From a bacterium (lineage in GTDB: Bacteria > UBA10199 > 2-02-FULL-44-16 > JAAZCA01): a stretch of 64,000 nt of DNA. This document shows, in pieces, positions 38,664 through 56,225 of the stretch. The notes below the pieces were generated by a model, which was not told where the DNA came from, did no database searches, and saw only the letters and a program-made list of their open reading frames with translations. Both the position numbers and the translations under genes were made by a program. The stretch's first letter is position 1, and every line of letters starts with the position of its first letter. Where the stretch lies: positions 800,001-864,000 of the forward strand of contig CAXXGI010000002.1 of NCBI GenBank assembly GCA_963674695.2. Reading direction: 5' to 3'.

Positions 38664-38985
38664 GGATTCGAACGTCCGCCAAAGGCGGACTTTTCGACGA
38701 CCTTCCGAAGGGCAGCTCGCCGAACAGGCGAGCGAGGTTGCTGACAAACCCGTGTTTTTGTCATCCCCGCGAAAGCGGGGATCTCGATGTACCGTAAAAA
38801 GCGAGATTCCCGCTTTCGCGGGAATGACAAACTTCGGTTTTACGATAATGATAACATGAAATGACTTTGTCAGCAGTCTGAGCTCGCCGAACAGGCGAGC
38901 TTTATAATGCTGAAGTGTCGGCGAGTGGGTAGCGCCCTCCACTCAGGCGTTGGCGGGCAAGCGAGCCGACGCCCTGGTGAGCACC
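38664..38985 (+). repeat. tRNA-linked repeat element, copy 1 (interrupted by a MITE)
   Basis: Aligns with 41259-41389; ends in a degenerate copy of the tRNA-Arg 3' end. Confidence 0.8.
38734..38880. mobile_element. MITE with IS1182-like ends, REP doublet cargo and perfect 20-bp target duplication
   Basis: Ends GAGGTTGCTGACAAACC / GACTTTGTCAGCAGTCTG; AGCTCGCCGAACAGGCGAGC at 38714-38733 and 38881-38900; empty site in the paralogous repeat near 41310. Confidence 0.88.
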
Positions 38986-41132: not shown

Positions 41133-41210
41133 GGTGGCTGTAGCTCAGTTGGTTAGAGCGCTAGGTTGTGGTCCTGGAAGTCGAGGGTTCGAGTCCCTTC
41201 AGCCACCCCA
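41133..41210 (+). tRNA. tRNA-His (GTG)
   Basis: G-1, acceptor GTGGCTG/CAGCCAC, CTAGG-TTGTGGT-CCTGG anticodon arm, encoded CCA. Confidence 0.98.
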
Positions 41211-41247
41211 AATAGAAAACGCCCCCTTTTGGGGGCGTTTTCTATTT
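41210..41247 (+). terminator. Terminator after tRNA-His
   Basis: AAATAGAAAACGCCCC / GGGGCGTTTTCTATTT. Confidence 0.9.
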
Positions 41248-41258
41248 GAGCTGGCCTT

Positions 41259-41389
41259 GGACTCGAACGTCCGCCAGAGGCGGACAGTTCGACGACCTTC
41301 CGAAGAGCCGCTCGCCGATTAGGCGAGCATTATAATGATGAAGTGTCGGCGAGTGCGTGCGCGAGCCGACGCCCCTTCAGCCACCCCAA
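41259..41389 (+). repeat. tRNA-linked repeat element, copy 2, ending in a 17-bp duplicate of the tRNA-His 3' end
   Basis: CCCTTCAGCCACCCCAA at 41195-41211 and 41373-41389. Confidence 0.85.
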
Positions 41390-41560
41390 GTGATAACTGG
41401 TAGAACCGCAGCATCATCCTAGTCGAAGACGGATGATGCTATAAAAATGGAAGTGAACCGCCAGGGGCGGGGAATATATGACCATATAGGTCAGAACGAA
41501 GTGACAACCCCTGTTCTGATTCAATCGGGACGGGGGTCTGCCGCATCTGGAGCCCGAAAG
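41382..41560 (+). repeat. att-like repeat, copy 1
   Basis: CACCCCAAGTGATAACTGGTAGAAC ... CCCTGTTCTGATTCAATCGGGACGGGGG ... GGAGCCCGAAA. Confidence 0.85.
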
Positions 41561-41607
41561 ATCTTGTTCGACTGGCACTTTCCGCTCCTTTATCAGGGTT
41601 TTTCTTA

Positions 41608-41634
41608 GCAATTATTTGGTGATTATGCTGATAC
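41608..41634 (+). promoter_or_regulatory. Putative sigma28-like promoter
   Basis: GCAATTATTT-N9-GCTGATAC. Confidence 0.5.
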
Positions 41635-41691
41635 ATGATAGAGACGAGCGGTCTCGGGGGCAGTGTCGGGTTGGAGGAAAGGGGAGTCAGT

Positions 41692-42693
41692 ATGCTTGCA
41701 GCTGGCCGAACAGTGTTCTCTCGGAGAGGGAGGCGCTTGCCGATGTGGTCGGCGTTTCCCGTAAGGAAATCCCAAGACGATCCTCCCGTGGGAAGCGCTC
41801 AGACGTACTATACCCAACAACTTCAAAACATTCATGATACCTACTGTTCAGCGGGAGTGTGTCGCTTGCCCCCGACGCCTGAAGGTTTGATGGCGTCTCG
41901 CGAGACGCGCCATGAGCTCCATCGGATTCTTGCGGGCATCCACGTCTTTTCAGGGAAGAAGGGTCAACGAGATACCGTCGTCAAAACATGTCCCATCATA
42001 GACGGTGCCAAGGCCATGTGTTATTCACACAGCCCTCTCAGTTACCGCGCGGCACGGAAAGTCCTCTTTGGAATGATCCATCTCAAGAAGGAGCCCGAAC
42101 CTGCGGAGCCCGGCAAGAGGTATTCCGTCAGAGATGTTTATTGTGAAAGGGATTATTATGAAAACATTGGGGTTGGTCCCGGAAAGTATCCCTCAAGCAA
42201 CGTGATCAATACCGAACATACCTGGCCACAGAGCCGTTTTCGTGTGTCCGGGGCGGACAAGTCATATCAGAAATCCGATCTTCACCATCTCTATCCAGCG
42301 AACAAGGAACGCAATTCCACGAGGGGCAATTACCCCTTTGGTGAGGTGGGAAGGATTGCTGAGAGGAAAAATCCAAGCTGCACCCTTTCAACGCTTGGGT
42401 ATCTCAGCGGTGGGGTCGAGCTTGGTTTTATGAATGGACAACGAATGAACGCTCTTTATTTTGAACCTCCCGACGCGCATAAGGGGAACGTGGCGAGGGC
42501 ACTCTTTTATTTTTCCGTCCGATATGAGTTGCCCATAGGAAACACCCAGGAACGCTTTCTTCGGAAATGGCATAAGGAGGATCCGGTCGATGGGGCGGAA
42601 AGAAGGAGAAATCAGATCATCTATGAAGCTCAGCACAACCGCAATCCCTTCATTGACACTCCCGAATTGGCCGACCTCATAGTTGATTTTTAG
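41692..42693 (+). CDS. Endonuclease I family (His-Me finger) nuclease; start uncertain
   Basis: NTEHTWPQS, SDLHHLYP, NSTRGNYPFG, KGNVARALFYF, RNPFID; no evident signal peptide. Confidence 0.9.
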   Translation: MLAAGRTVFSRRGRRLPMWSAFPVRKSQDDPPVGSAQTYYTQQLQNIHDTYCSAGVCRLPPTPEGLMASRETRHELHRILAGIHVFSGKKGQRDTVVKTCPIIDGAKAMCYSHSPLSYRAARKVLFGMIHLKKEPEPAEPGKRYSVRDVYCERDYYENIGVGPGKYPSSNVINTEHTWPQSRFRVSGADKSYQKSDLHHLYPANKERNSTRGNYPFGEVGRIAERKNPSCTLSTLGYLSGGVELGFMNGQRMNALYFEPPDAHKGNVARALFYFSVRYELPIGNTQERFLRKWHKEDPVDGAERRRNQIIYEAQHNRNPFIDTPELADLIVDF

Positions 42694-42772
42694 AGCCTGT
42701 AAAACAGATCGTGTAACGGCTTAACCTTTTTAAGTCCGGGGACACGACACTTCACTCGTTAGGGTTCCATGA

Positions 42773-43684
42773 GTGCCCTCTCTCGTCGTCGACGCCCGTG
42801 CGCGTCTCGCGTGGGGATCGACCGCCATCGAAGGATGCACGCTTTCACTGGAAGCCGTTGAGGGGTTGCTGGAGGGCAAGGAGGCGGTCGGCTATCCGGA
42901 TCGCCATGTTCGGATGGCTCAGAACTATCTCAAGGCGCTGGTGTGGTTGCAGAAAAAGGGAAAGACGTCCCGCATTGCGGAAAAGGATGTTTTCCGACTG
43001 CATACAATCGTCGCGGCCGACGTTGTGGACGAAGGACCCGTTGGCGCCTACCGGCGAGAATCCGTGAGTGCTGGACTGTATGTTGCACCACCCTGGAAAA
43101 AGGATCCGGAACTCATGGAAGCCATGCTTGGGTGGCTCAATGGCCCGGCGAAGGCATTGCCGGCGGTTATCTCCTCTTCACTGCTTCATTTACGCTTTGT
43201 CGAGATCCATCCCTTTCGCGACGGCAATGGTCGTGTCGCTCGAGCCTTGGCGACGTGGGAGCTCTATCGAAAGGGATTCGACACGCTGCACATCTTTGCC
43301 CTCGATGAGATCCTGATGGAAAATCGGGCGTTCTACATCAAAAGCCTGCAGCGGGTACAGGTCGAAGGGGAAGATCTGGGTGGGTGGCTGGAGTTTATGG
43401 CGGAGTCGATTCTGGAAACGCTCGTGCGTATCGAGCGCCGAATGCTGGCGATCGGTCCGGTGAGTCAGGAACCGCTGGCGTTATCGGTTCGGCAGGAGAA
43501 GCTTTTGAATCTGCTGCGCGAAAAAGGAAGCCTGCCTGTGAGCGAGATAGCCAAAGCGCTTAAGGTGACATCACCCGGTGCGCATCACATCATGAGGCCG
43601 CTTTTGGAGCGCGGTTTGATCGATCGCATCGGTTCGCATCGATCGACACGGTATGCCCTCCCCACGAAAAGATCGAAAGCCTAA
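42773..43684 (+). CDS. Fic family protein with C-terminal wHTH, probably 5'-truncated
   Basis: STAIEG, HPFRDGNGRVAR; GTG start without RBS only 15 residues before STAIEG. Confidence 0.85.
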   Translation: MPSLVVDARARLAWGSTAIEGCTLSLEAVEGLLEGKEAVGYPDRHVRMAQNYLKALVWLQKKGKTSRIAEKDVFRLHTIVAADVVDEGPVGAYRRESVSAGLYVAPPWKKDPELMEAMLGWLNGPAKALPAVISSSLLHLRFVEIHPFRDGNGRVARALATWELYRKGFDTLHIFALDEILMENRAFYIKSLQRVQVEGEDLGGWLEFMAESILETLVRIERRMLAIGPVSQEPLALSVRQEKLLNLLREKGSLPVSEIAKALKVTSPGAHHIMRPLLERGLIDRIGSHRSTRYALPTKRSKA

Positions 43685-43690
43685 AATCAG

Positions 43691-43849
43691 TTCGACGATT
43701 ATCACGCAAAGCACCCCAAGTGATAACTGGTCGAACCAAAGACGCCCCCAGAGCGAGTTGCGAGCTGGGGGCGTTTTTGTCCTGAGCGACGAGCGAAGCG
43801 AGGAGTCGAAGGACCCCCATTTATCAATCAGGACATGGGTTTCCAGTTT
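43691..43849 (+). repeat. att-like repeat, copy 2 (with REP-like inserts)
   Basis: TTCGACGATTATCACGCAAAGCACCCCAAGTGATAACTGGTCGAAC ... TCAATCAGGACATGGGTTTCCAGTTT. Confidence 0.85.
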
Positions 43850-43935
43850 ATAGGAACTACTCATCATTTGCTCCGTCGACAATTGACCGAAATTATTCCG
43901 TGACGTATGAGTTTCATTGGTGGGAGGTCTCACGA

Positions 43936-45156
43936 ATGACGATAGCCGAAGACAATCGAGCAGGTGGCACGCCGGAAAAGCCCTACAATCGAGGCCCGTT
44001 CAAGGGTCTGACGCCCAACGTCATCAAGTTGGGCATCGTGTCTTTCTTCGCCGACGTTTCGAGTGAGATGATTTATCCTCTAACGCCGATCTTTCTGACG
44101 ACCGTGCTCGGCGCGCCGATGGCCGTCGTCGGTCTCATCGAGGGTGTGGCGGAGGCGATCGCGAGCATCATGAAGACCGTCTCTGGCCGAATGTCAGATA
44201 GAACCGGCAGGCGAAGGCCATTTGTTTTCGTGGGCTATCTGCTCTCGGCGGTAGCGAAGCCTTTGATTGCGTTAGCGGGCGGATGGGCGCTGGTATTCGT
44301 CGCGCGCTTTGCGGACAGGTTCGGAAAGGGTTTGAGGACGAGTTCTCGCGATGCGCTCATTGCCGATTCAGTTGATGCGAAGACGAGGGGCCTCGCGTTC
44401 GGCTGGCACAGGGCGTTTGATACGATGGGCGCGGTTATTGGGCCGCTGCTCGCCATTCTCTGTGTCAAGTATGTAGAGAATTTGAGGTTTGTCTTTCTCT
44501 GGGCCCTTGTCCCCGGAATCATCGGTGCGCTCATCGTTCTCTTCGTGAAGGAGAGGCGAACCGCACTCGGTAGTGGTAATTCGACTTTTAAATTGAGTTC
44601 TCTGCCCACGCCATTTCGCAGGTATCTCGTCGCGTGGAGCGCATTTTCGATAGCAAATTCGAGCGATATATTTCTGATTCTCAAGGCCAAACAGGTTGGG
44701 TATTCAACTGCACTCGTCATCGCCGTATATGCGTTTTACAATTTGACGTATGCGCTCGCGAGCCCGTATCTTGGACATCTCTCGGACAAGATGGAACGAA
44801 AAAATCTTCTGGCGTTGGGGCTCATCGCCTTCGCCGCGGTCTATGTTGGGTTTGCCCTCGTTGTGCATCCGTGGCAAATGTGGGTTCTGTTCGGCATATA
44901 CGGCCTCTACATGGCAGCCACGGACGGTGTCAGCAAGGCCCTCGCGATCGACTTGGTTGAGGCGGAAGTCAGGGCGACGGCGGTAGGTGTAATGAGCACG
45001 TTCTCTGGTATCGCAGCTCTCATTGCAAGCACGGTGGCTGGGGTGCTCTGGAACGCCGTTGGTTCTTGGGCGGCCTTTGTCTATGGAGCGGTCGGCGCTA
45101 TCGTTGGCGCCATGATGCTTTTCAAGATTCCAAAAATTGTGAAGGCCTCTTGCTGA
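43936..45156 (+). CDS. MFS transporter
   Basis: GRMSDRTGRRR motif A, DRFGKGLR, RDALIAD, 12-TM pattern; GGGAGG RBS. Confidence 0.93.
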   Translation: MTIAEDNRAGGTPEKPYNRGPFKGLTPNVIKLGIVSFFADVSSEMIYPLTPIFLTTVLGAPMAVVGLIEGVAEAIASIMKTVSGRMSDRTGRRRPFVFVGYLLSAVAKPLIALAGGWALVFVARFADRFGKGLRTSSRDALIADSVDAKTRGLAFGWHRAFDTMGAVIGPLLAILCVKYVENLRFVFLWALVPGIIGALIVLFVKERRTALGSGNSTFKLSSLPTPFRRYLVAWSAFSIANSSDIFLILKAKQVGYSTALVIAVYAFYNLTYALASPYLGHLSDKMERKNLLALGLIAFAAVYVGFALVVHPWQMWVLFGIYGLYMAATDGVSKALAIDLVEAEVRATAVGVMSTFSGIAALIASTVAGVLWNAVGSWAAFVYGAVGAIVGAMMLFKIPKIVKASC

Positions 45157-45304
45157 TCGATGACCAAGTAAGCATCCGGGCCTTGTTGATATGACGGAAT
45201 TTCTGATGTGTATTTGTCCGCCATGAGGTCGACGGAGGCGGTCCGGAGGCGTTGAAGACCCTCGGAAGGCGTCCTGAAAAAGTTCCTGAAATCGTTGCAG
45301 AAGG

Positions 45305-45514
45305 GACCCCAAGTGACAACCGGTAGAACTGCCGAGAATCCCTTAGCGAGAAGCTTGAGCGACGAGCTTAGGGATTCCGGCATCCTGAGCGAGCCCTTCG
45401 ACTCCCTTTGGTCGCTCAGGGTAAACTCCGCGAGTCGAAGGACCCCATTCATGAATCAGGACAGGGGTTTCCAGTTTCTGGAGCCCGAAAGCCCGCGTCC
45501 GACGGGTGTTTTCC
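45305..45514 (+). repeat. att-like repeat, copy 3 (with REP-like inserts)
   Basis: ACCCCAAGTGACAACCGGTAGAAC ... AATCAGGACAGGGGTTTCCAGTTTCTGGAGCCCGAAAGCCCGCGTCCGACGGGTGTTTTCC. Confidence 0.85.
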
Positions 45515-45666
45515 ACGATAGCACCCAGGAAATTACGGTATTTCAATCGCTTGATCATGGTTCCAACATGCGATATCCAACGTTCGACCGCGGGAAACCA
45601 CGCGATGTGTCTCTGTTCTCCACAGAATCGAGAAGGGAGAGCATGCGAGCGTGAAATGAGGGTTCT

Positions 45667-46965
45667 ATGACGCGAATATGGTTCAGATCGTTTGTGGTCA
45701 TTGGGATGGTCGCAGTATGTGCGGGGGCATCGGGATGCCGCGGATGCACCAGTGGGGAATCACAGCGTGAATGGGCACAAAGCGCACTCAAAGCAGCTGA
45801 CGTGTCCATGGATGCGACGACCGTCGAGGCGAACAATGCCTTCGGGTTCGATCTTCTGCAGCGCGTCAGGGAAGACTCGACGGGGAATGTTATCTTCTCG
45901 CCCGTCAGCCTCTCCATTGCGCTGACGATGACGGCGGCGGGGGCGCAGGGGGGGACGCGGGATCAGATGCTCGAAGTCCTCCATCTGGGTCCCGATCTGG
46001 CGAAGGTCCAGGCAGAGTACCGAGCGCTACTCGCGCGGTGGGTGCTTTCCGAAAAGCCATATTTGCTGGAGGTGGCCAATCGCCTCTGGGTGGACCAGGG
46101 GTTTTCCCTCCTTCCTTCCTATCTCTCGCTGGTGGAAAACAATTTCGGTGCCGAACCGAAAACGCTGAACATCACCGGGAATCCCGAGGAGGCTCGCCGG
46201 GCGATCAACGCATGGACTAGTGAACAAACGCACGGTAGGATCGAGGATCTCATCCCGGCGGGGAATCTGAATGCCGATTCGCAGCTCGTTTTGACGAATG
46301 CCATCTATTTCTTCGGGGAATGGGCACGGAAGTTCGACCCGGACAGGACGAGAAACGAGGATTTCTATTTGGATGCTGCAAATCAAGTGAATGTTCCGTT
46401 TATGCACGAAACCAATCGCTATCGGTATGCCGAGACGGATGCATTTCAGCTGCTGGAGATGTCTTACAAGGGTGGGGATCTCTCGATGGTGATCCTTCTT
46501 CCGCGTGCGCGGGATGGGATCGCGGCTCTGGAGCGTGACCTTACGTCGATGTCGATCGAGCAACTTCTGGCGCAGGCGTCGATGAAAAAGGTCATCGTGA
46601 CACTCCCAAAATTTCGGATCGAAAAAGCATTCGGGCTAGAAGAGGTGCTTCGAAAGATGGGGATGGGTCTGGCGTTCAGCGGTGCCGCTGATTTCAGCGG
46701 GATGACGGGGGGCAGGGATCTGATGATCGGTTTCGTGAGACACAAGGCTTTCATCGATGTGAATGAGGATCGCACGGAGGCGGCCGCAGCGACCGCGGTA
46801 TCGATGATGCCGGCGGCTGCTCCTCCTCGACCGGAGCCGCCCATCGTCTTTCGTGCGGACCATTCATTTCTCTTTCTGATTCGCGACAGAACATCCGGGG
46901 CTATCCTCTTCCTCGGCCGCCTTGCAAATCCTCGGGGGGTGAAGGAAAAATTTCCAGGACACTAA
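45667..46965 (+). CDS. Serpin (exported, possibly lipoprotein)
   Basis: NVIFSPVS, INAWTSEQTHGRI, LTNAIYFFGEW, LPKF, TEAAAAT hinge, FRADHSFLFLIRD. Confidence 0.95.
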   Translation: MTRIWFRSFVVIGMVAVCAGASGCRGCTSGESQREWAQSALKAADVSMDATTVEANNAFGFDLLQRVREDSTGNVIFSPVSLSIALTMTAAGAQGGTRDQMLEVLHLGPDLAKVQAEYRALLARWVLSEKPYLLEVANRLWVDQGFSLLPSYLSLVENNFGAEPKTLNITGNPEEARRAINAWTSEQTHGRIEDLIPAGNLNADSQLVLTNAIYFFGEWARKFDPDRTRNEDFYLDAANQVNVPFMHETNRYRYAETDAFQLLEMSYKGGDLSMVILLPRARDGIAALERDLTSMSIEQLLAQASMKKVIVTLPKFRIEKAFGLEEVLRKMGMGLAFSGAADFSGMTGGRDLMIGFVRHKAFIDVNEDRTEAAAATAVSMMPAAAPPRPEPPIVFRADHSFLFLIRDRTSGAILFLGRLANPRGVKEKFPGH

Positions 46966-47049
46966 TAGTTCCGAGGACACGACGCTTGTTCTGATCTCCA
47001 GGGACATGAGACTTAATTTAGTGCTCATCTCGGTCGTCATCGAGATCGC

Positions 47050-47150
47050 CTGCCCTGAGCGAAGTCGAAGGGATCAACAGCCCAGTACACGGATCCAGGG
47101 ATATCAGCTTCCCTGAAGGCTGAGCTCTTCGGCAAGCTCAGGACGGGCAC
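47050..47150. repeat. REP doublet (CCTGAGC..GTCGAAGG family)
   Basis: GCCTGCCCTGAGCGAAGTCGAAGGG ... CTTCGGCAAGCTCAGGACGGGC; related units near 43780 and 45383. Confidence 0.65.
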
Positions 47151-47307
47151 TGTCGAATGGGGCGTACATTCTCGTCCGCGTCGTGAACCCCTGCATTTTC
47201 CTCAACCGATCACACACGAACGTCTGACGCTCCTGATCGAGAGTGCCGTTGAGCGCGGGTGGTACTTATCGATTGAACTATTCCAGCCAATAAGATAGAA
47301 TGGTTCC

Positions 47308-48501
47308 ATGAAAATAAAAAGGATGTATTTCAATAAGTTATATAAAGAATTGCGGGAACCGGAGATCTCCATTTTGCTCGGTGCGCGACAGGTGGGGAAA
47401 ACGACGTTGCTCGAACAACTCCATGCGAAGGTGACCAAAGCAGGGCTGAAATCGAAATATTTCAACCTCGAATCCTCGGAAGGGCTCATGGAACTTTCGG
47501 GCGATAATGCGGCGGTCATCAAAACGCTGATGGGAGCAGGGGATGTCGTTTTTATCGATGAATTCCACTATTTGAAAAATGCATCGAAGATTTTTAAAGA
47601 GATCTACGATTCGAAGAAAAAGGTGAAGATCTATGCCTCGGGTTCATCGTCGCTGGAAATCCATAAGCATTTGAAGGAGAGTCTTGCTGGACGTTTTCGA
47701 ACGACGATGATTTTTCCGCTGACACGTGAGGAGATGAGACAGTCCAAGATGGAGGTGCTGGATGTGTTTTTGAAGTGGGGTGGAATGCCTGGATTGTTGC
47801 ATCGGGCGAGCGACGACGACAAGATGGATCTGCTCAGCAATATCGTGAGCACGTACATCACGAAAGACGTCAAGGCGATGATTCGGGAGGAAAACGTACG
47901 AGCCTTTAACCAAATGCTCTATCTGCTTGCGCAGAATCAGGGCTCCCTCGTTGTGATGGCCAATATCGCGAACGCGACGGGAATAAGTCAAACGACCATC
48001 GCCGACTATCTCGAGATTATGTCACAGACGTATGTTTGCCATCCGGTGCATAGCTATTCGACGAATCTTGCTAATGAGCTAAAGAAATCAAAAAAATGTT
48101 ATTTGTTTGATGTGGGAATTCGCAACAGCCTTCTCAAGGATTTTGGAGAACCAGCCGAGCGAGGTGATCGGGGCGTTCTCCACGAAACGTTCGTGTATCT
48201 CAGCATGCTCCCTCAGCTCAAACCGAATATGGAAATACGGTTCTGGAGGACGAAGAAGGGGGATGAGGTTGACTTTGTTTTGATCAAGAACCGGGTTCCT
48301 GTGCCGGTCGAGGTGAAGTCGAGCGTAAAGGAAGCTTCCATTCCTTCCGGCATGCGGTCTTTTTTTCGAGCATATCCGAAGGCGCCGTTTGGCATCGTGT
48401 TTAGCGGTATTCCGGAGAAAACGGCTGACCATGAAGGAAAGCCTGTTTATTTTATGGGATGGGATCGGGCTGAGAATATCGAGTATTTGAATGATGTGTA
48501 A
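47308..48501 (+). CDS. AAA_14/DUF4143 ATPase
   Basis: GARQVGKTT, FIDEF, ASGSSS, ESLAGR, GGMP, FWRTKKGDEVDF, PVEVK; AT-richer codons. Confidence 0.92.
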   Translation: MKIKRMYFNKLYKELREPEISILLGARQVGKTTLLEQLHAKVTKAGLKSKYFNLESSEGLMELSGDNAAVIKTLMGAGDVVFIDEFHYLKNASKIFKEIYDSKKKVKIYASGSSSLEIHKHLKESLAGRFRTTMIFPLTREEMRQSKMEVLDVFLKWGGMPGLLHRASDDDKMDLLSNIVSTYITKDVKAMIREENVRAFNQMLYLLAQNQGSLVVMANIANATGISQTTIADYLEIMSQTYVCHPVHSYSTNLANELKKSKKCYLFDVGIRNSLLKDFGEPAERGDRGVLHETFVYLSMLPQLKPNMEIRFWRTKKGDEVDFVLIKNRVPVPVEVKSSVKEASIPSGMRSFFRAYPKAPFGIVFSGIPEKTADHEGKPVYFMGWDRAENIEYLNDV

Positions 48502-48505
48502 CAGA

Positions 48506-48685
48506 TTCGACGATTATCACGCAAAGCACCCCAAGTGACAACCGCAGAGCGGAGCACATGCGGAGCGCATATAATTGAAGTGACCCGCCGTAGGCGGGGA
48601 ACAAGGATCCTTGGAGGTCAGAATGAAATGACAACTGGTAGAACCCCTGTTCTGATTCAATCAGGACGGGGGTTTCCAGTTTTTG
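48506..48685 (+). repeat. att-like repeat, copy 4
   Basis: First 33 bp identical to 43691-43723; ends GACAACTGGTAGAACCCCTGTTCTGATTCAATCAGGACGGGGGTTTCCAG. Confidence 0.88.
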
Positions 48686-48914
48686 GGGGGAAGGTCAAAT
48701 GCGGTACGATGTGAAATGGAGAACAAGGAAAGAGCTGATCGAATCAGCGGGATGTTCTACCGGCTCAGGTGAGCCGGTAATTAGGAATCAACATCAGGAT
48801 CAACATCAACATCACCATCATTCACAATCAAAAATCAGAAGGCAATTGTGCGATGATATCGTGACTGCTGCACCTTACCCTCAAACGAATGAAGTGTTGT
48901 GAATCGCCCCGGGA

Positions 48915-49826
48915 TTATCGTCTTTGTTCATGCGAATCGACGCTGGATTGAACCAATCCCTCAACGATTCGATCAAGGGTCTCATTGAAAACAATCGGTT
49001 TCTCGAGCATCAGAAAATGTCCTGCATCGTCGATAAATGTAACGTTATAATTTTTGATATACTTTTTATTCGTTTTGACGTTTGTGGGATATATCTTTGA
49101 GTTGATAGAAAAAATGGGGACGCTGATGTGAGCAAAGTAGTCTGTAACCCTCCCTTTTTGGTACTCCCCCAGAAACTCCTCCATTGCACTTACGCCAACA
49201 TGCGGCGGAGATGATGACATATCCTCTGTTATCCAATCAATGAGTTTTGGAGAAGTGCTCGGCACAAACATATCTTTCAGGAAGGACTTGGTAGCCTTCT
49301 TGAAATCTTCTCTGAATGGCTCCAGCATCATCGTAAATACCTCTGACGTTACCGGATATGCAACATCCTGAATGGAATCGACTATTACAATACCAATCAC
49401 CCTTTCTGGGAGAAGGCTGGCCGTTTTTGCAGCTAATTCACCACCCATCGAATGTCCTATGAGGATAACTTTGCTCGAGCCAACTGAATCGACAACAGCT
49501 TTTACATCATCAGCGAAGGAGTCTATCGAATATCTTTTTCTTTCCAGACCTGAACGACCATGGCCGGCAAGATCGATTGTCACCACCTGATATTTTTTTG
49601 AAAAATAGGGAATCTGCTCTTTCCAATAATTGCCGTCGCAGCTCCATCCATGGATGAAAATTAAAGCGGGTTCTTTGCCTGAATACAATTCGTACGATAT
49701 GCGTACACCATCGGAGGAATCAACGCTCTTCACAACACCAACGTGCTTCTTGGATGAGCATCCAAAAGAGAACGATACCATCAATAAGATGCATATCAGA
49801 GCGATGGAGCGAAATGATTTTATCAT
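48915..49826 (-). CDS. Alpha/beta hydrolase, probable lipoprotein
   Basis: FIHGW, DLAGHG, GHSMGG, AGHFLMLEKP; lipobox-like SFGC; low GC. Confidence 0.9.
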   Translation of the reverse strand: MIKSFRSIALICILLMVSFSFGCSSKKHVGVVKSVDSSDGVRISYELYSGKEPALIFIHGWSCDGNYWKEQIPYFSKKYQVVTIDLAGHGRSGLERKRYSIDSFADDVKAVVDSVGSSKVILIGHSMGGELAAKTASLLPERVIGIVIVDSIQDVAYPVTSEVFTMMLEPFREDFKKATKSFLKDMFVPSTSPKLIDWITEDMSSSPPHVGVSAMEEFLGEYQKGRVTDYFAHISVPIFSINSKIYPTNVKTNKKYIKNYNVTFIDDAGHFLMLEKPIVFNETLDRIVEGLVQSSVDSHEQRR

Positions 49827-50025
49827 AGAATGCCTCGTGACTTCCTTCTCATTGAGCTGCGCTGTATATGAGATGTGTTTCAAACTCAATGGTATTATGT
49901 GGCCATCTCTTGACAGGCAGTTCTGGAATCGTTCAACCAGCCAGCCATTGTGTTTTTTACGACGAAGCTCCATGGGAGCGTGGGAAGTTAGAACCATAAT
50001 GCCCCGCCGAATGGCGGGGGCGATG

Positions 50026-50115
50026 GATAACTGGTAGAACCCCTGTTTTAATTCAATCGGGACGGGAGTTTTCCGTTCATGAGGCCCGAAAACTCGCCTC
50101 CGACGGGTGTTTTCC
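50026..50115 (+). repeat. att-like repeat, copy 5
   Basis: GATAACTGGTAGAACCCCTGTTTTAATTCAATCGGGACGGGAG ... GGCCCGAAA ... CCGACGGGTGTTTTCC. Confidence 0.85.
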
Positions 50116-50859
50116 GTGATGGTTATTTCGAGAAGCCAACCCGATGCATGGCTGGAGGAGATCGAGGGGTGTCGGGGAAGGGGTTTGACCGGTGTGGCAG
50201 GACCAGATCAGACCTATAGCGAATACGCTGCGGCCGCTACTGCCGAGATCTGTCCGAACGAGGATGTATGCGCAACGAAATACTATGAAAATGTGCTACG
50301 TCAGTATTCACAGATCTCTGACGCCAATTGCTGGCCGGAATTCCGGTTCAGCTATAGCGAGGGGCCTGCAGTAACGGCTTTTGCGTGGGCAGGTATGGGA
50401 GGTGTCACGCGTCCACTAGAGCGTCGCGCTTTTATGGAGTCTTTTCAAAACGGCAACGAGACATACATGCGTAGTTTTGATACCATCGTTACGGATGCCA
50501 TTGGTGATGATGGATCGGTGGAATGTAATATGCGGGTCGAGTTCCTTTTGGCGTTGGATGCGGTTTCGATCATTACTCCGGATGGAAGCGGACCACCTGA
50601 AGATTCGATCGGAGTTCCGGGAGCGAACATGGCCAAGGCCATTACACCGGGGACGGATCCGACTCTTCTCATTCCCGACGTTGGCGTTGCCTCCACGGTG
50701 CGCTCTGTTTTCAATACAACGATTACTTCAGTGCTGGGAACCGATGAGGCCACGTCTTTATGCCAAGCGCAGCTCGGCGAATCGAATGAACGCACACGGA
50801 ATGGCTTCGTATCGAAAGGGGCGATAGTTGCTGATACCAACCCGATTCCTTCGCCGTGA
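50107..50859 (+). pseudogene. Hypothetical protein, probably a 3' fragment abutting the att-like repeat
   Basis: 250-codon frame that starts inside the repeat; no RBS or signal peptide. Confidence 0.45.
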
Positions 50860-51175
50860 AGTTTTGAGATGAATAAGTTTGTTCGAGTATAGATCCGATA
50901 CGGGGAATAAGTAAGAAAACCTCGTTGTTTAGGTCTAACTTATACTGAACCATATCAGTAAAACTGCCAGCGCATTCGCGTCTCAAATCGAGTCACAATC
51001 GAACAGAACAAACGCCACACCACTGCAACCGGGCTCATATGCGACAAATTGCGCCCCTCGCCTTCTCGCGTTTTCAATTCTGTTCCGTCTGATGGTTTTC
51101 TAGTCCTATCAAGCGCTCACCGGACGCCCGACCTTTCGCTCACAGGGCGAACTCGCTCGATTTCCAGAAACAGCA

Positions 51176-52498
51176 TTATCGTCGCAGTCGCAAAATCTGG
51201 TTCAGAGCAACGGCGAGCAGGGTGGCCAGCGTCAGCGAGGACTCGAAGAGGGGGGCAAGCCACATGGGGACATGGGCGTAGAGTTCGGGGAGGATGTCGA
51301 CACTCAAGCCCAGGGCGAATGGAACGCCGATGACGAAGATTTTTCGGGTGTCGATCCCGCTGCCGATGATGATCTGCAGCCCCGACAGGACCATGAAGCT
51401 GATGACGAAGATCAGGATCGCGCCCATGACCGGATCGGGCATGATCGAGATCAGCGACGAGAGCTGTGGGAAGAAGGCGAGCAGGATGAAGAGCGCACCG
51501 GCGATAAAGCCGATCCAACGGCTCGTTGCCCGCGTTGCCAGCGACATCCCGACGTTGCTTGCCGAGCTGTCGGTTGCCATCCCCCCGAGGAGCCCGGCGG
51601 AGATGACGCTCAAGCCATCGGCGAACAATCCGTTGCCGATGTTGCCGATGTTCGCTTCCTCCCAGCTGGCGTCGTTGGCCTTCTGGGCGATGACGAGATT
51701 TCCGAAGGTCTTGAGGCTTCCGCAAAGGGAGACGATGAGGAACGGGACGAGCAGCGACAGGTCGAAGGAAAATTTAAAATCGCTCAAGCCGCGGATGGGG
51801 CTGTCGACAAGCGGGGCGTGCATGAGGTTGTAGAGATCGACTGACGAGATGATGCCGAAGAGCAGCGAGAGGAGATACCCGGCCGCCATGCCGATCAGCA
51901 CGGAGTAGAGCTTGAGCCGGCCCCGGCTCATGACGTTGACCCCGATCATGATCGCCAGCGTGATCGTCGCCGTCAACACGACTGCGGGCTGGATGCGGTC
52001 GCCGGCGTAGTCGATGCCCACGAATTTCGACGCGCCCAGCGGAACGAGCATGACCGCGACCATGACGACGACGAGCCCCGTGATCTCGACCGGGAAGAGA
52101 ACGCGCAGCTTCGAGATGACGCGCGAGAAGAAGAGCTCGAACAGCCCCGCGACGATCGTCATGCCGCGCATCAGCGGCAGACCGCCGATCCACGCGGCGT
52201 GTACGGACACCGACAGGAAGGACGGTCCGCAGAGGTTGGGGACCAGGTAGCCGGATCCCACACACCCCCGGCCCAGCGACTGCAGGATCGTTCCGATGCC
52301 GGCCGCGATCATCGAGAGCGAGACGACGCTGCGGATCTCGGCGAATGATCCGCCGATCTCCTGCAGGATGACGACCGGGAGGATGAGCGTGCTCGACATG
52401 ACAAAGACGTGCTGAAGGGCGAGGACCAGCAGCACCGCGAGCGGGGGCCTCTCATCCACAGCATAGATCAGATCGTCTGGTCTTAGAACTTTTTCCAT
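51176..52498 (-). CDS. NCS2 (xanthine/uracil) family permease
   Basis: LIYAVDERPP, LALQH, LFADG, SSASNVG signature region, PDPVMGA. Confidence 0.9.
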   Translation of the reverse strand: MEKVLRPDDLIYAVDERPPLAVLLVLALQHVFVMSSTLILPVVILQEIGGSFAEIRSVVSLSMIAAGIGTILQSLGRGCVGSGYLVPNLCGPSFLSVSVHAAWIGGLPLMRGMTIVAGLFELFFSRVISKLRVLFPVEITGLVVVMVAVMLVPLGASKFVGIDYAGDRIQPAVVLTATITLAIMIGVNVMSRGRLKLYSVLIGMAAGYLLSLLFGIISSVDLYNLMHAPLVDSPIRGLSDFKFSFDLSLLVPFLIVSLCGSLKTFGNLVIAQKANDASWEEANIGNIGNGLFADGLSVISAGLLGGMATDSSASNVGMSLATRATSRWIGFIAGALFILLAFFPQLSSLISIMPDPVMGAILIFVISFMVLSGLQIIIGSGIDTRKIFVIGVPFALGLSVDILPELYAHVPMWLAPLFESSLTLATLLAVALNQILRLRR

Positions 52499-53397
52499 AT
52501 GGGATCGATGGCAAAGTAGTCGGAGCCGACGATATAGGCCGTGCCCTTCACGTCGACCCTTCGCAGATATGCGATCTTCTTGGATGGCCTGGTCTCTCCC
52601 GGCTTCGGCCACATGTAGCTGATCCAGGCCGTGTCCGTCGTCTTGAGCGCGTCGATCATCTCCTCGATGGTTTTTCTTCCCATGGCGTCCCTGAAGCCGA
52701 GCAGGTTTCTCCCGCTGCCCTCGCCTGCAAACGCCTTGAGGTCAGGCGAAGCGGGATCGACGATAACATGCCCGGTCATGTCGAGGACGAAGAGGTAGAT
52801 ATCCTTATAGACGAAGCGGCTCGACCGGTCGGCAAACACCGCAAACGCGGCCGTCCCTTTCTCTCGGATCAGGTCCACCGCTGCATCGACCGTTTCGACC
52901 AGGAACTGCCGCTCGGTGCGCATGTTGTAGATGCCGCTGCCGATGAGGACGTCCGTGCCGTCGAGGCCGGTTGTGCGCAGGACATACGAGCTCTTCCAGG
53001 TCGGGAGGAGGCCGCCCGGCTCGAGCCAGAGATAATGGACCCAGCCGCCCGGGTCGGAAGGATCGCGCGTGGTCACATCGATCATCTGCCGGATGATTGG
53101 CTTTCCCTCGAGATCCCGAAGGCTCAGGATGTTCTTTCCGACGAGGTCGGGGTTGAAGGGATCGAACAGGGGGGTGCCATGTATGTCGATGACGAAGAGA
53201 TAGTGGCTGTCCTCTTTCTCAAATTCCGCGAATGCGCGTGCTCCTTTCCGGGAGAAGAGCTCCGCGGCATCGTGAACGGAATCGATGAGTTCCTGCGTCT
53301 CCCGGAACTGGTACTTGTCCAGCTCCTCGTCTGCGGCAAGGGAGGCCGTCGGGAATGCGAGGACCAGCAGCATGGAAAGAACTCTGAATCGCATCAT
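52483..53397 (-). CDS. Stand-alone periplasmic tandem Cache-domain protein
   Basis: Signal peptide; two repeats of YLFV.D..G, L.D..G..II, W..Y.W..PG, K..Y, GS. Confidence 0.88.
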   Translation of the reverse strand: MMRFRVLSMLLVLAFPTASLAADEELDKYQFRETQELIDSVHDAAELFSRKGARAFAEFEKEDSHYLFVIDIHGTPLFDPFNPDLVGKNILSLRDLEGKPIIRQMIDVTTRDPSDPGGWVHYLWLEPGGLLPTWKSSYVLRTTGLDGTDVLIGSGIYNMRTERQFLVETVDAAVDLIREKGTAAFAVFADRSSRFVYKDIYLFVLDMTGHVIVDPASPDLKAFAGEGSGRNLLGFRDAMGRKTIEEMIDALKTTDTAWISYMWPKPGETRPSKKIAYLRRVDVKGTAYIVGSDYFAIDPIWKKF

Positions 53398-53467
53398 ATC
53401 TCCGAATCTCCGACCGATCATATTGAATGCGGCGGATTTTTGCAAAGTGCAAAAATATGCACGTCCA

Positions 53468-53517
53468 GAGGTTTTCCGTTTTTGGAGCCAAAAGGCCCGC
53501 GTCCGGCGGGAGTATTC
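53468..53517 (+). repeat. Partial att-like repeat, copy 6
   Basis: GGTTTTCCGTTTTTGGAGCCAAAAGGCCCGCGTCCGGCGGG resembles the 3' part of copies 3 and 5. Confidence 0.6.
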
Positions 53518-53683
53518 TGCGAGTGGTATGTCAAAATTCCCGCCCGACGTGTATGTTGGGGAGATCGGGGATGGCTGGAAGAGGGGTTCGATAGGTCAGA
53601 AAGGATGGTAGGGATGGGAGATGGGGGCTTCCCTATCGAGAGGTACGCTTTCCCAGTTTTTCGTAAAGATGGAGAAAAATGTA

Positions 53684-55014: not shown

Positions 55015-55133
55015 CGTCCTGTTCAATTGACCTTCCAAAAAGCCGCTCGTCGAATGATCAAGTGCCGACGCGTGCGTGCGCGCGCCGGCACCCCTTCGGC
55101 CACCTTAACGGATATCCGCAGAGCGGAGCAATT

Positions 55134-56225
55134 CTACTTCGCCCTGTCGGTAACATCGATGAACGGCGTATCCCCTTTGAGGTTGATGGTCTTGATGGTG
55201 GGGGCGTTGAGATCCATCTTCATCAGATCGACCATCTTGATCGACATGTCGTCATAGGTGCGCATGTAGAAGCGCTTGTGCTTCAGATCCGCCACGCTCG
55301 TCCACTGCGTATATTCGATGCCCTTTTTCGCACTCTTGGACGTCCGCACGGAGCCCATCGGGATATCGAAGTTGTTGAGAATGTGGAACGCCTGAAGGAC
55401 GACATCTGTATCTGTCTGTACGGGTACAGCCATGCCGCTGAAGAAGGCAGCGCGAACGAAGCGAGATGGAGAGGTCCAATCACCGGGGCTTCCCAGAAAG
55501 CCCGTCCCCATGCTTAACGCTTTGAGCTCGACCCCACGGAGGTTGACCGGAGGCGCGTTCACGGGAGTCAGGTTGATGTAGTTTCTGAGGTTCGTCATGT
55601 GCCAGTCGAAGGCTGGAACGTTTGTCATCACGCCTATCGTATTGTCGAAGACTTTGAGTTCCCCCCCGATGGGATCGATCGCGATGTTGTTTCCCTGCGC
55701 ATCGACGACGTCAAAGTGGTAGGTCTGCTTGCTTCCCGCGGTAAGATAGTTCGGCATGACGACCCTGATCTCCGCTAGGGCATTGCGCACCTCCTCCACC
55801 GTTGCGAAGTTCGTAAGCATCCATGTCGCCATGTCGAGTGGCGAAATCGTGCGCGAAGCCTGGGCCTTATCGTATGTCTGGAACTGTGCAAATCCCGGAA
55901 AGAAGAAGAGGCCGACGGCGAGCCCCTTCTCGTTCACGCCATCGACGATGACCGGTTTGCCCACGGCATTTGCGCCGACAACACCATACTTCGACGTCCA
56001 CGTCATGCCGGGTTTGCCGTTGGGCAGTGAACCTGTGAACTCCATCCCCCGAGGTAGAACGATAATGTTTGATTCCAGATCTGCAACAAACTCAAGCGAA
56101 CGCGCGTGCACCACCGTGCCATCCTTTGCACTGAGTCGAATGCCGGTGCATGCATCGACTGAGGATGCGGATGAGACGATCAGCGTTGCCATGGCCACAA
56201 AAGCCAATGCGATGGATTTCTGCAT
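55134..56225 (-). CDS. Choloylglycine hydrolase / penicillin V acylase family Ntn hydrolase
   Basis: Signal peptide then CTG nucleophile; DGVNEKGL, VMTN, PGDWTSPSRFVRA, YTQWT. Confidence 0.93.
   Translation of the reverse strand: MQKSIALAFVAMATLIVSSASSVDACTGIRLSAKDGTVVHARSLEFVADLESNIIVLPRGMEFTGSLPNGKPGMTWTSKYGVVGANAVGKPVIVDGVNEKGLAVGLFFFPGFAQFQTYDKAQASRTISPLDMATWMLTNFATVEEVRNALAEIRVVMPNYLTAGSKQTYHFDVVDAQGNNIAIDPIGGELKVFDNTIGVMTNVPAFDWHMTNLRNYINLTPVNAPPVNLRGVELKALSMGTGFLGSPGDWTSPSRFVRAAFFSGMAVPVQTDTDVVLQAFHILNNFDIPMGSVRTSKSAKKGIEYTQWTSVADLKHKRFYMRTYDDMSIKMVDLMKMDLNAPTIKTINLKGDTPFIDVTDRAK

Follow-up and report, generated by a model that had tools for sequence, protein, structure and literature searches.

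What is the row of short gene units, set apart by direct repeats of a tRNA end, that stands behind tRNA-His in this bacterium, and how was it assembled? The window, meaning the whole stretch of DNA analyzed, is 64,000 nt of contig CAXXGI010000002.1 (positions 800,001–864,000 of the forward strand; assembly GCA_963674695.2), and positions given without a contig are window positions. It belongs to a 3.03 Mb genome in three contigs (G000; C1–C3) and lies on C2, where the array occupies ~841–856 kb. A first-pass annotation, made from the letters of the window, had proposed an integrase-free array of gene cassettes bounded by att-like repeats. Our reading, to which we give a probability of about 55%, is that an additive island starts at 41.2 kb and reaches 50.1 kb or beyond, with decayed remains as far as 55.1 kb, and that it was built by repeated site-specific insertion of small, recombinase-less units at the 3′ end of tRNA-His. 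Tandem site-specific accretion at a tRNA-His attachment (att) site, in the manner of cis-mobilizable elements (CIMEs), is well supported, and we infer that the units were mobilized in trans.

Repeat families were recovered by mechanical repeat finding, and each copy was then read directly. tRNA-His(GTG) lies at 41134–41210 on the + strand (ARAGORN; 66.1 bits with the Rfam tRNA model). Its final CACCCCA together with the following A forms an 8-nt core, CACCCCAA, that is repeated at the junctions. A composite direct repeat with this tRNA-His core is confirmed: copies recur at 41382, 43712, 45306, 48527, and 50026, with a 57-nt piece at 53466, all on the + strand and as previously listed, including the loss of the first bases from the fifth. 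Copy c1 (41373–41590) joins the former 3′ end of tRNA-His, now displaced, to the core, the box GATAACTGGTAGAAC, hairpin B (41508–41536), and a distal module, with a small type-2 element inside it (41407–41508). Copy c2 (43691–43855) has a 22-nt left arm, TTCGACGATTATCACGCAAAG, then the core, the box, an inserted hairpin, and a variant hairpin B. Copy c3 (45284–45518) has a diverged arm, the core variant GACCCCAA, and a trailer that carries an insert. Copy c4 (48506–48692) has the left arm and core, a type-2 insertion at ~48543–48635, and hairpin B at 48641–48675 followed by a T-run. Copy c5 (50026–50119) is an uninterrupted box, hairpin B, and distal module that starts at GATAAC and lacks the arm, the core, and the CACCCCAAGT start. 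The piece at 53466–53522 (c6) is the distal trailer module only, 57 nt that are 79% identical to c3, and its status is uncertain. To these six a seventh, decayed junction is added, c7 (55017–55135, + strand), which the first-pass annotation had missed. It contains the 3′ part of a small type-1 element, the tRNA-His 3′ remnant CCCCTTCGGCCACCTTAA, CGGATA (an arm of the CGG type), and the start of a type-2 element, and 92 of its 118 aligned bases are identical to 41283–41425.

Thirty-three nucleotides are identical in c2 and c4 (43691–43723 = 48506–48538), set 6 nt past the stop codon of a Fic gene and 4 nt past that of an ATPase gene, as had been noticed before. Four copies of the core lie on the + strand of the window, always within 41204–48534, and the – strand has none. 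Direct repeats of the core flank the units, CACCCCAA at the tRNA, c1, c2, and c4 and GACCCCAA at c3, and they do likewise in the related genomes G006, G012, G057, G001, and G007. The hairpin pattern has three matches in the 3.03 Mb genome, all within the locus, and the reversed control gave none. A genome-wide search placed the arm, core, box, and hairpin at the tRNA-His locus only. The many copies that define dispersed repeats of the repetitive extragenic palindromic (REP) or miniature inverted-repeat transposable element (MITE) type are therefore not seen for the junction, and only the nested type-1 and type-2 elements and a repeat at 48706–48820 are dispersed in this way. These data support the proposal that att-type junctions are tied to the tRNA-His 3′ end and are not a scattered REP. 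An Rfam search of the window gave nothing above noise except tRNAs and no family for the junction hairpin.

The same junction was sought in relatives. G000 is the sole species of its genus in the comparison set; G001–G012 belong to the same family, other genera included, and G057 to another family. The loci compared include L004, L018–L022, and L025, of which L020, L021, and L022 are metagenome contigs. The box pattern, at no more than two mismatches, was found in six of 93 phylum genomes, namely G000, four of the 12 family relatives, and one of five genomes in family f18, and the control gave none. The junction stands behind tRNA-His with different cargo in four other genomes of the family, one genome of another family, and three metagenome contigs. 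G006 has four copies in 8.6 kb, and the units set apart are TPR; TrmO, an unknown open reading frame (ORF), an AcrB fragment, and ParE; Big_5; and DUF4347. In G012, tRNA-His is followed by a gene for a 392-aa lipoprotein, a full junction with trailer, and a 494-aa ORF. In G007, a congener of G012, a methyltransferase unit closed by arm and core is followed by a beta-lactamase-family gene, a trailer remnant, and TrmO; the downstream anchors of these two genomes are collinear and the content between them is different. G057 has one unit behind tRNA-His, and G001 has a one-gene DUF2127 unit closed by an arm-like sequence with CCACCCCAA and a terminator palindrome. The junction is also borne by L020, L021, and L022, with two copies 6 kb apart in L021 and a cargo there of Schlafen/AlbA_2, an SNF2 fragment, Mrr, a methyltransferase, and TrmO. 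L018 resembles G057, and L019 is the G012 contig. Contigs of G003, G005, and G010 stop 2.3 kb or less from tRNA-His and were left out of the array assessment; with G011 counted in, the contig ends lie within 3.7 kb of that gene. Cassette content thus differs at one and the same tRNA-His site, with no identical gene order among the relatives compared. Because relatives carry other gene packets at this spot, the site is a gene-acquisition hotspot of the kind known at other tRNA genes.

Wider searches added little. Three of five loci with the box pattern in the genome_contigs collection are true; the other two, cyanobacterial, lie inside an apparent short coding frame with no tRNA-His nearby and were set aside as chance. 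The exact hairpin pattern gave no match in genome_contigs or metagenome_contigs, and one pattern scan of viral_contigs also gave none. A single viral_contigs match from another scan lies inside a 753-aa ORF of a 39% GC contig and was rejected as chance. Plasmid and phage records had no match to the junction. As a separate observation, a TrmO-like gene stands behind a trailer copy in G006, G007, and two metagenome contigs at 75–90% amino acid identity (L004 2567–3082, L025 11716–12333, L022 8407–8958, and L021 6053–6604). It may be the ancestral neighbor of tRNA-His; its G000 homologue is only 33–35% identical and lies elsewhere (C1:918549).

The origin of the right part of the repeat is indicated by genomes that have it in place. 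In G006 and G011, tRNA-His runs directly into CACCCCAA-CGGAYAACTGGTAGAACCC, followed by a hairpin and a T-rich tail, and the same box and hairpin lie directly behind tRNA-His in G004 and in G057 of the other family. Upstream synteny between G006, which is of another genus, and G000 is retained at 65–71% nucleotide identity. Since box and hairpin directly follow the tRNA in these four genomes, the right part of the repeat is the native tRNA-His trailer. As aligned, the whole repeat comprises the final 8 nt (CACCCCAA), then a conserved box, then a hairpin that resembles a terminator. Hairpin B was evaluated by covariation in 14 aligned copies from seven genomes or contigs. Pairing is found in 87.6% of cells compared to 36–58% with slid partners, and both sides have changed in six of 13 pairs. 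Two positions are U-G on the + strand, the hairpin ends in a T-rich tail, and hairpin B of c4 was the top terminator-like match in a simple scan. Hairpin B is accordingly labeled here as the predicted terminator of tRNA-His. The trailer of c3 is closest to the native trailer of G004, another genus, with 89.5% identity over 86 nt, which is above any G000 copy. The tRNA gene itself comes in two quite different bodies within this one family, one in G000, G006, and G011 and the other in G001, G003, G004, G005, G007, G010, and G012. Both end in GCCACCCCA, and such divergence is unusual for a tRNA inside one family.

The left side of the junction has a different character. A table of 19 copies and an alignment of eight show that the left arm, RTTCGNAAATTATC(AC/CG)NNAAAG ahead of CACCCCAA, is kept across genera although the tRNA bodies differ. 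It resembles a stretched T-loop-to-acceptor segment of tRNA-His; in junction copies this conserved 22-nt pseudo-tRNA arm stands ahead of the trailer repeat. The arm is set 4–20 nt past a stop codon in G000, G012, and L022. A dyad spans the core, with TTATCNN on the left and NNGAYAA on the right; 83.9% of cells pair compared to 21–48% when slid, two of seven pairs covary (CAC/GTG versus CCG/CGG), and one of 500 shuffles reaches the observed value.

Three comparisons place the crossover. In the single-unit loci of G012, G001, and G007, the duplicated sequence is the 8–9-nt core only. Between G007 and L020, homology spans the 3′ end of the methyltransferase gene and the arm and ends right after CACCCCAA, so that one methyltransferase gene with its arm is joined to two different right flanks. 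The G007 methyltransferase protein shares 88.5% identity with those of L021 and L022, and 94% with the 34 aa that L020 retains. On the tRNA side of the G057 unit, the copy combines a GTG-type right arm with a trailer that is 92% identical over 118 nt to those of L021 and L022; the distal junction combines a left arm of the CAC type with a right arm of the CGG type and has another trailer. This pairing of arms and trailers is what an attP x attB exchange predicts for attL and attR. The core-only repeats, the G007/L020 break, and the G057 arms together suggest that the crossover maps to the 8-nt core and that the exchange was mediated by a recombinase.

Two families of small elements are nested in the junctions and had been read as part of one composite repeat. 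The spacers were compared by BLAST with the genome and with the 700-nt trailers of all 43 tRNA genes. The composite is real, and three stretches within or beside it, 41407–41508, ~48543–48635, and the 161 bp before c1, belong to separate genome-wide families of small repeats. The 161 bp between tRNA-His and c1 (41212–41372, + strand), which holds a terminator palindrome (41202–41255) and has a body homologous to elements behind other tRNAs, is a member of the type-1 family, non-coding and ~150–170 bp long. Type-1 elements lie directly behind seven tRNA loci (His, Gln-CTG, Arg-TCT, Ser-GCT, Glu-TTC, Met at C3:434778, and Gly-CCC) and also behind the displaced trailer of a tRNA-Met on C1. Matches were found in nine of the 43 trailers, two of which are the element of a neighboring tRNA. 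Besides window 41212–41372, the elements lie at C1:17473, C1:195587, C2:364672, C2:838541 (window 38541), C3:434778, and C3:722530. Most close with a 12–20-nt direct copy of the local tRNA 3′ end that begins right past the T-loop; the tRNA-Arg element is an exception, its copy being just ~10 nt long and containing a mismatch. At the opening there is usually a terminator palindrome, and the second arm of this palindrome is an inverted copy of the tRNA end. Tandem forms occur, three copies with a period of 171 behind tRNA-Met and 77-nt sub-repeats behind tRNA-Gly.

These elements explain the displacement of c1. The 17-nt direct repeat 41195–41211 = 41373–41389 flanks the 161-bp type-1 element, so the 17-bp tRNA duplicate reported at first is real and is the footprint of such an insertion, not part of the cassette repeat. 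At tRNA-His of G006, G011, G004, and G057, the element is absent and the trailer follows the tRNA directly. By this comparison c1 is the old tRNA end and trailer, shifted 178 bp downstream by a separate 161-bp element. Type-1 elements look like cargo-less insertions at tRNA ends. A derivation from the arms of a C1 integrase island was rejected; the tRNA-Met island there has other arms, and type-1 sits beyond its attR. Type-2 elements are ~100 nt long and end in GGTCAGAAYGAARTGACAA. They interrupt c1 and c4, and elsewhere they are inserted, often in tandem, inside the T-loop-like GGTTCGAA^TCC of partial tRNA copies (C1:17560–17760 and C2:658760–659240).

Other small structures were encountered in these trailers. 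The terminator hairpins behind several G000 tRNAs are long palindromes (C1:17520–17590, C2:364600–364690, C2:659240–659330, and window 41202–41255) whose 3′ arm is an inverted copy of the last 11–17 nt of the tRNA, and in the precursor, base pairing between the trailer and the 3′ strand of the acceptor would be possible. A further dispersed repeat at 48706–48860 has at least 10 copies at 82–92% identity on all three contigs, and a short hexamer-like run (ATCAAC type) lies beside it at 48787–48830. A small palindromic element with ends of the GTCATCCCCGCGAAAGCGGGGAT type occurs in the tRNA-Arg trailer of G000 (window 38700–38790) and in the array spacers of G006 (L004 2270–2300 and 5010–5090).

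The cargo was identified by Pfam, which agrees with the gene calls made from the letters alone. Unit 1 (41635–43684, + strand) encodes endonuclease I (41635–42693) and a Fic protein with a winged helix-turn-helix domain (42773–43684). Unit 2 (43900–45156, +) is an MFS transporter. Unit 3 (45667–48501, +) encodes a serpin (45667–46965, GC 0.57) and an AAA_14/DUF4143 ATPase (47308–48501, GC 0.47), and unit 4 (48915–49997, –) encodes an alpha/beta hydrolase. Beyond c5 are a 250-aa ORF with no Pfam family (50107–50859, +) and, on the – strand, an NCS2 permease (51176–52612) and a Cache-domain protein (52483–53445), which together occupy 51176–53445. The latter group had been described as a repeat-bounded cassette; no full junction bounds it, and that part of the description is withdrawn. 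The GC content differs between modules as described, 0.43 for the hydrolase, 0.47 for the ATPase, 0.52–0.58 for the others, and 0.62 for NCS2. The hydrolase, NCS2, and Cache genes are on the – strand, and the first genes begin ~45–150 nt behind a terminator-like hairpin.

Homologue searches bear on the origin of these genes. The serpin has no homologue in the 12 family relatives, and its best match in the phylum, in another family, is 42% identical. The hydrolase gene has 83.5% nucleotide identity over 907 nt to a copy on C23 of G006, compared to 65–71% for the syntenic upstream DNA; five stop codons over positions 21–357 of that copy were flagged in a six-frame search. Over 207 aa, the 250-aa ORF matches the C-terminal portion of the 494-aa ORF behind the G012 trailer at 41.5% identity. 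NCS2 has only a 28% homologue, in one of 12 relatives, and a choloylglycine-hydrolase gene has none in the 12. Because these last two genes are accessory in the family, the flexible region extends past c5. Judged by homologue distribution and composition, the units are accessory and appear to be of mixed origin.

These data suggest an attP-type layout. A left arm of 22–30 nt, resembling a degenerate T-loop-to-acceptor segment of tRNA-His, would travel with the unit on its left. Crossover would occur in the 8-nt core CACCCCAA. The right side, the box GAYAACTGGTAGAAC and the terminator hairpin of the tRNA-His trailer, would travel with the unit on its right. A new unit would enter at the core and older units would be pushed outward. 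The recombinase would lie outside the array, supplied by a transient element or an unlinked gene, or it has been lost and the array is a fossil; the enzyme may be external and transient, lost, or of an unrecognized type.

A recombinase was sought in 12 units from seven genomes or contigs, 11 with cores on both sides and the c4–c5 unit. Pfam searches of the unit ORFs gave a recombinase domain in none of the 12; ORFs shorter than ~100 aa were not all scanned. Genes for integration or transfer were absent from the scanned ORFs, which is the gene content that defines a CIME, and no unit had a Pfam domain of the recombinase and replication module that is the hallmark of tycheposons. As first claimed, the window has no match to PF00589 or PF00239, downstream ORFs included in the scan, and PF00589 was not found on any array contig. 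G000 has five PF00589 genes, two Xer-like genes on C3 (C3:410059 and C3:742351) and three C1 integrases, and none on C2 near 841–856 kb. The serine recombinases of this genome comprise a large enzyme that adjoins tRNA-Arg (C2:113593) and, on C1, three small resolvases. The only tyrosine recombinases of G004 (94% complete) are two Xer-like ones, and serine recombinases are lacking there; no large serine recombinase was found in G001, G004, G006, or G057 or on the G012 array contig. In the four genomes searched (G000, G006, G011, and G057), the full junction pattern occurs only in arrays. A cognate recombinase-bearing element with the same att specificity was not detected in the genome itself, in relatives, in the genome, metagenome, and viral collections, or in plasmid and phage records; the search needed near-exact motifs, and a diverged partner could be missed.

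Two of the C1 integrases adjoin tRNA-Met and tRNA-Ala as ordinary islands. The tRNA-Met island (C1:336679–352400) has an integrase beside the tRNA, a resolvase at 343190, and GGGGCCAATTTGGGGCCAAT arm repeats at both ends. The last 20 nt of its tRNA recur exactly 15.6 kb downstream in a ~45-nt direct repeat that runs from the anticodon loop to the 3′ end, and the original trailer and a type-1 element are displaced beyond attR. Mimicry of dif by the junction was also considered. A strict dif consensus search gave nothing, and a loosened consensus pointed to a likely dif at C3:482054, close to where the cumulative GC skew peaks (~C3:475000). By eye the likely dif is unlike the junction, no second dif-like junction copy was found, and Xer-mediated mimicry was rejected.

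Several observations weigh against assembly by site-specific insertion. No recombinase could be linked to the site. No junction copy adjoins a recombinase gene in G000, G006, G011, G057, the contigs from the collection scans, or the plasmid and phage records. Two Xer-like enzymes are the only tyrosine recombinases of G001 (99% complete), which has none of the serine type, and the same holds for G057 (89%); in these genomes the site enzyme is either absent or of an unrecognized kind. The dyad rests on eight related sequences only, which is modest support, is lacking in G007, G001, and copy b of L021, and also scores as a minus-strand sigma70-like promoter. The arms of G001 and G007 were recognized by eye. 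Trailer copies are most alike within a genome (G006 c2 versus c4, 97% over 64 nt), a likeness that gene conversion or homologous recombination would also give. Copy c5 has no core, and the c5–c7 stretch has no clean junctions. Mobility was sought in sequencing runs that bear the locus, three of one study and one marsh run at a share of 0.07. The window order was seen, and contigs break at the 33-bp identical stretch. The only apparent skips came from the low-share marsh run, with sides of 20–24 letters at 90% likeness. Circles, deletions, and empty sites were not seen; the locus-holding runs are contigs of one study and cannot show them.

The absence of a linkable enzyme is shared with a more conventional history, in which integrase-bearing tRNA-His islands or satellites inserted here and the integrase and most of the content were later deleted, leaving a fixed fossil without mobility. 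We regard this account as possible though doubtful, and decay of ordinary islands overlaps with site-specific accretion of small units. Gene fragments occur in the units (the C-terminal part of AcrB in G006, SNF2 in L021, and the truncated 250-aa ORF), and junctions c3, c5, c6, and c7 are decayed. Degenerate elements and scattered partial tRNAs are described in the available portion of the tycheposon report (10.1101/2020.12.28.424599), and integrase-less ssrA islands in that of the Dehalococcoides report (PMC3146451). However, about half of the Dehalococcoides islands retain an integration module (16 with and 15 without, by the same partial source, PMC3146451), and the scanned ORFs of the 12 units here hold no recombinase fragment. 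The units are also very small, 0.9–6 kb, the smallest (G001 and G007) being one gene, and in G000, G012, and L022 the arm is set 4–20 nt past a stop codon. The arm, moreover, is conserved across genera and is not decaying freely.

Capture by homology was weighed next and is unlikely. Incoming DNA with a 60–140-nt trailer would enter by a RecA-dependent single crossover, or by a double crossover between the tRNA and trailer flanks, and the repeats would be the duplicated homology. The long similarity to the right of the core, the absence of a detected recombinase, the likeness of copies within a genome, and the resemblance of c3 to the native trailer of another genus all fit such an origin. It does not account for the left boundary, which is sharp at CACCCCAA in every copy and genus, or for G012, G001, and G007, which have the 8–9-nt core only and no trailer homology on the tRNA side. 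The homology between G007 and L020 ends at the core, and the conserved left arm would have no role.

Very unlikely is a boundary or regulatory module, a locally duplicated rightward intrinsic terminator, possibly with a leftward promoter, that has no link to gene arrival: it draws on the covariation, + strand U-G pairs, T-rich tail, and top scan rank of hairpin B and on a dyad that scores as a minus-strand sigma70-like promoter (48541 to 48513, 10/12; 43726 to 43698, 9/12) with a minus-strand gene to its left in G006, G057, and G001, but no Rfam family matches, the promoter would point antisense into a converging gene in G000, G012, and L022, which have no such minus-strand gene, and such a module leaves unexplained why every copy has a pseudo-tRNA arm and a tRNA core, why all genomes have the junction at tRNA-His loci only, why cargo differs among relatives, and why homology breaks at the core. 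A regulatory function of the hairpin can coexist with recombination at the core.

If the units are moved by a recombinase from elsewhere, single genes for defense, transport, and secreted inhibitors would be traded in a lineage seen only in metagenomes. Recombination assays have a concrete substrate in the conserved 30-nt arm-core-arm site and the clean break at CACCCCAA. Were the array only a fossil, it would still show that each insertion can bring a tRNA terminator along and that this terminator can insulate the unit that follows. A wider idea is put forward tentatively, as a conjecture that may well fail: tRNA 3′ ends in this small uncultured phylum would be capture platforms for recombinase-less units moved by an unlinked or unrecognized recombinase, an integron analogue in which the tRNA-His end and terminator serve as attI, and the ~160-bp type-1 elements would be the empty form of the same machinery.

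Site-specific accretion at tRNA-His can be set against known systems. Integrons hold a row of small cassettes without a recombinase, with structured recombination sites, at one platform with adjacent intI, Pc, and attC. The array shares the row of small cassettes without a recombinase, the structured sites between them, and the single platform. In contrast to integrons, it has no adjacent intI and no Pc promoter, and its platform is a tRNA 3′ end. Compared by eye with attC, the junction has another layout: a tRNA-end core, a 7-bp dyad, and a separate terminator hairpin. The genes here lie on both strands with their own upstream regions and are not promoterless cassettes in one orientation. The integron-like array of the first-pass annotation is thus kept as an analogy only, with no linked integrase found. 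Integrative mobile elements exploiting Xer (IMEX) and the pdif modules of Acinetobacter plasmids are recombinase-less modules moved by a host-encoded recombinase at short dyad sites. Several array-bearing genomes have only Xer-like recombinases, but the junction is unlike the likely dif at C3:482054 and no second dif-like copy was found. Compared to a tRNA island of the Islander type, the array has the direct repeats and lacks an integrase beside the tRNA; the tRNA-Met island on C1 has both. Geobacter genome papers held nothing relevant on tRNA-trailer repeats in their main text, and their supplements, which may list such repeats, were outside the scope.

Prochlorococcus tycheposons, as far as the available portion of their report describes them, stack at tRNAs with partial-tRNA spacers and degenerate remnants (10.1101/2020.12.28.424599). 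The likeness lies in successive integrations at one tRNA, partial tRNA copies between them, remnants, and niche or defense cargo. In the islands described there, newer elements push older ones inward. Tycheposons are defined in that portion by a tyrosine or large serine recombinase and replication modules, and none is present here (10.1101/2020.12.28.424599). The part of the source that defines CIMEs does so on the ICESt1/ICESt3 paradigm, relative to a cognate integrative and conjugative element (ICE) or integrative and mobilizable element (IME) able to mobilize them in cis (PMC5704250). Like CIMEs as described there, the units keep attL and attR, lack integration and transfer genes, and stack in tandem at one att site; they differ in that no cognate ICE or IME partner was found and in being tiny, with no conjugation remnants (PMC5704250). 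The closest described case, by the accessible part of its report, is the tandem ssrA-specific islands of Dehalococcoides, which are stacked downstream of one small-RNA gene with short direct repeats, 20 bp, of its 3′ end, and 15 of which have no integration module and are proposed to be cis-mobilizable (PMC3146451). That part also describes a conserved ~15-bp motif just upstream of each repeat and no island duplicated within a strain, both of which resemble the array. The differences are that 16 islands there have a serine-recombinase (DsiB) module compared to none of 12 units here, that the 20-bp repeat there lies in the T-loop-to-end segment of the transfer-messenger RNA (tmRNA) and here an 8-nt tRNA-His core is followed by a repeat that runs ~100 nt into the trailer and terminator, and that the units here are much smaller (PMC3146451). 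Relative to the described systems, in a limited comparison of the literature, what is new here is that every unit is without a recombinase, that the core is the last 8 nt of the tRNA only, that the tRNA terminator travels with each unit, that two families of an uncultured phylum share a conserved arm, and that a cargo-less element family marks other tRNA loci.

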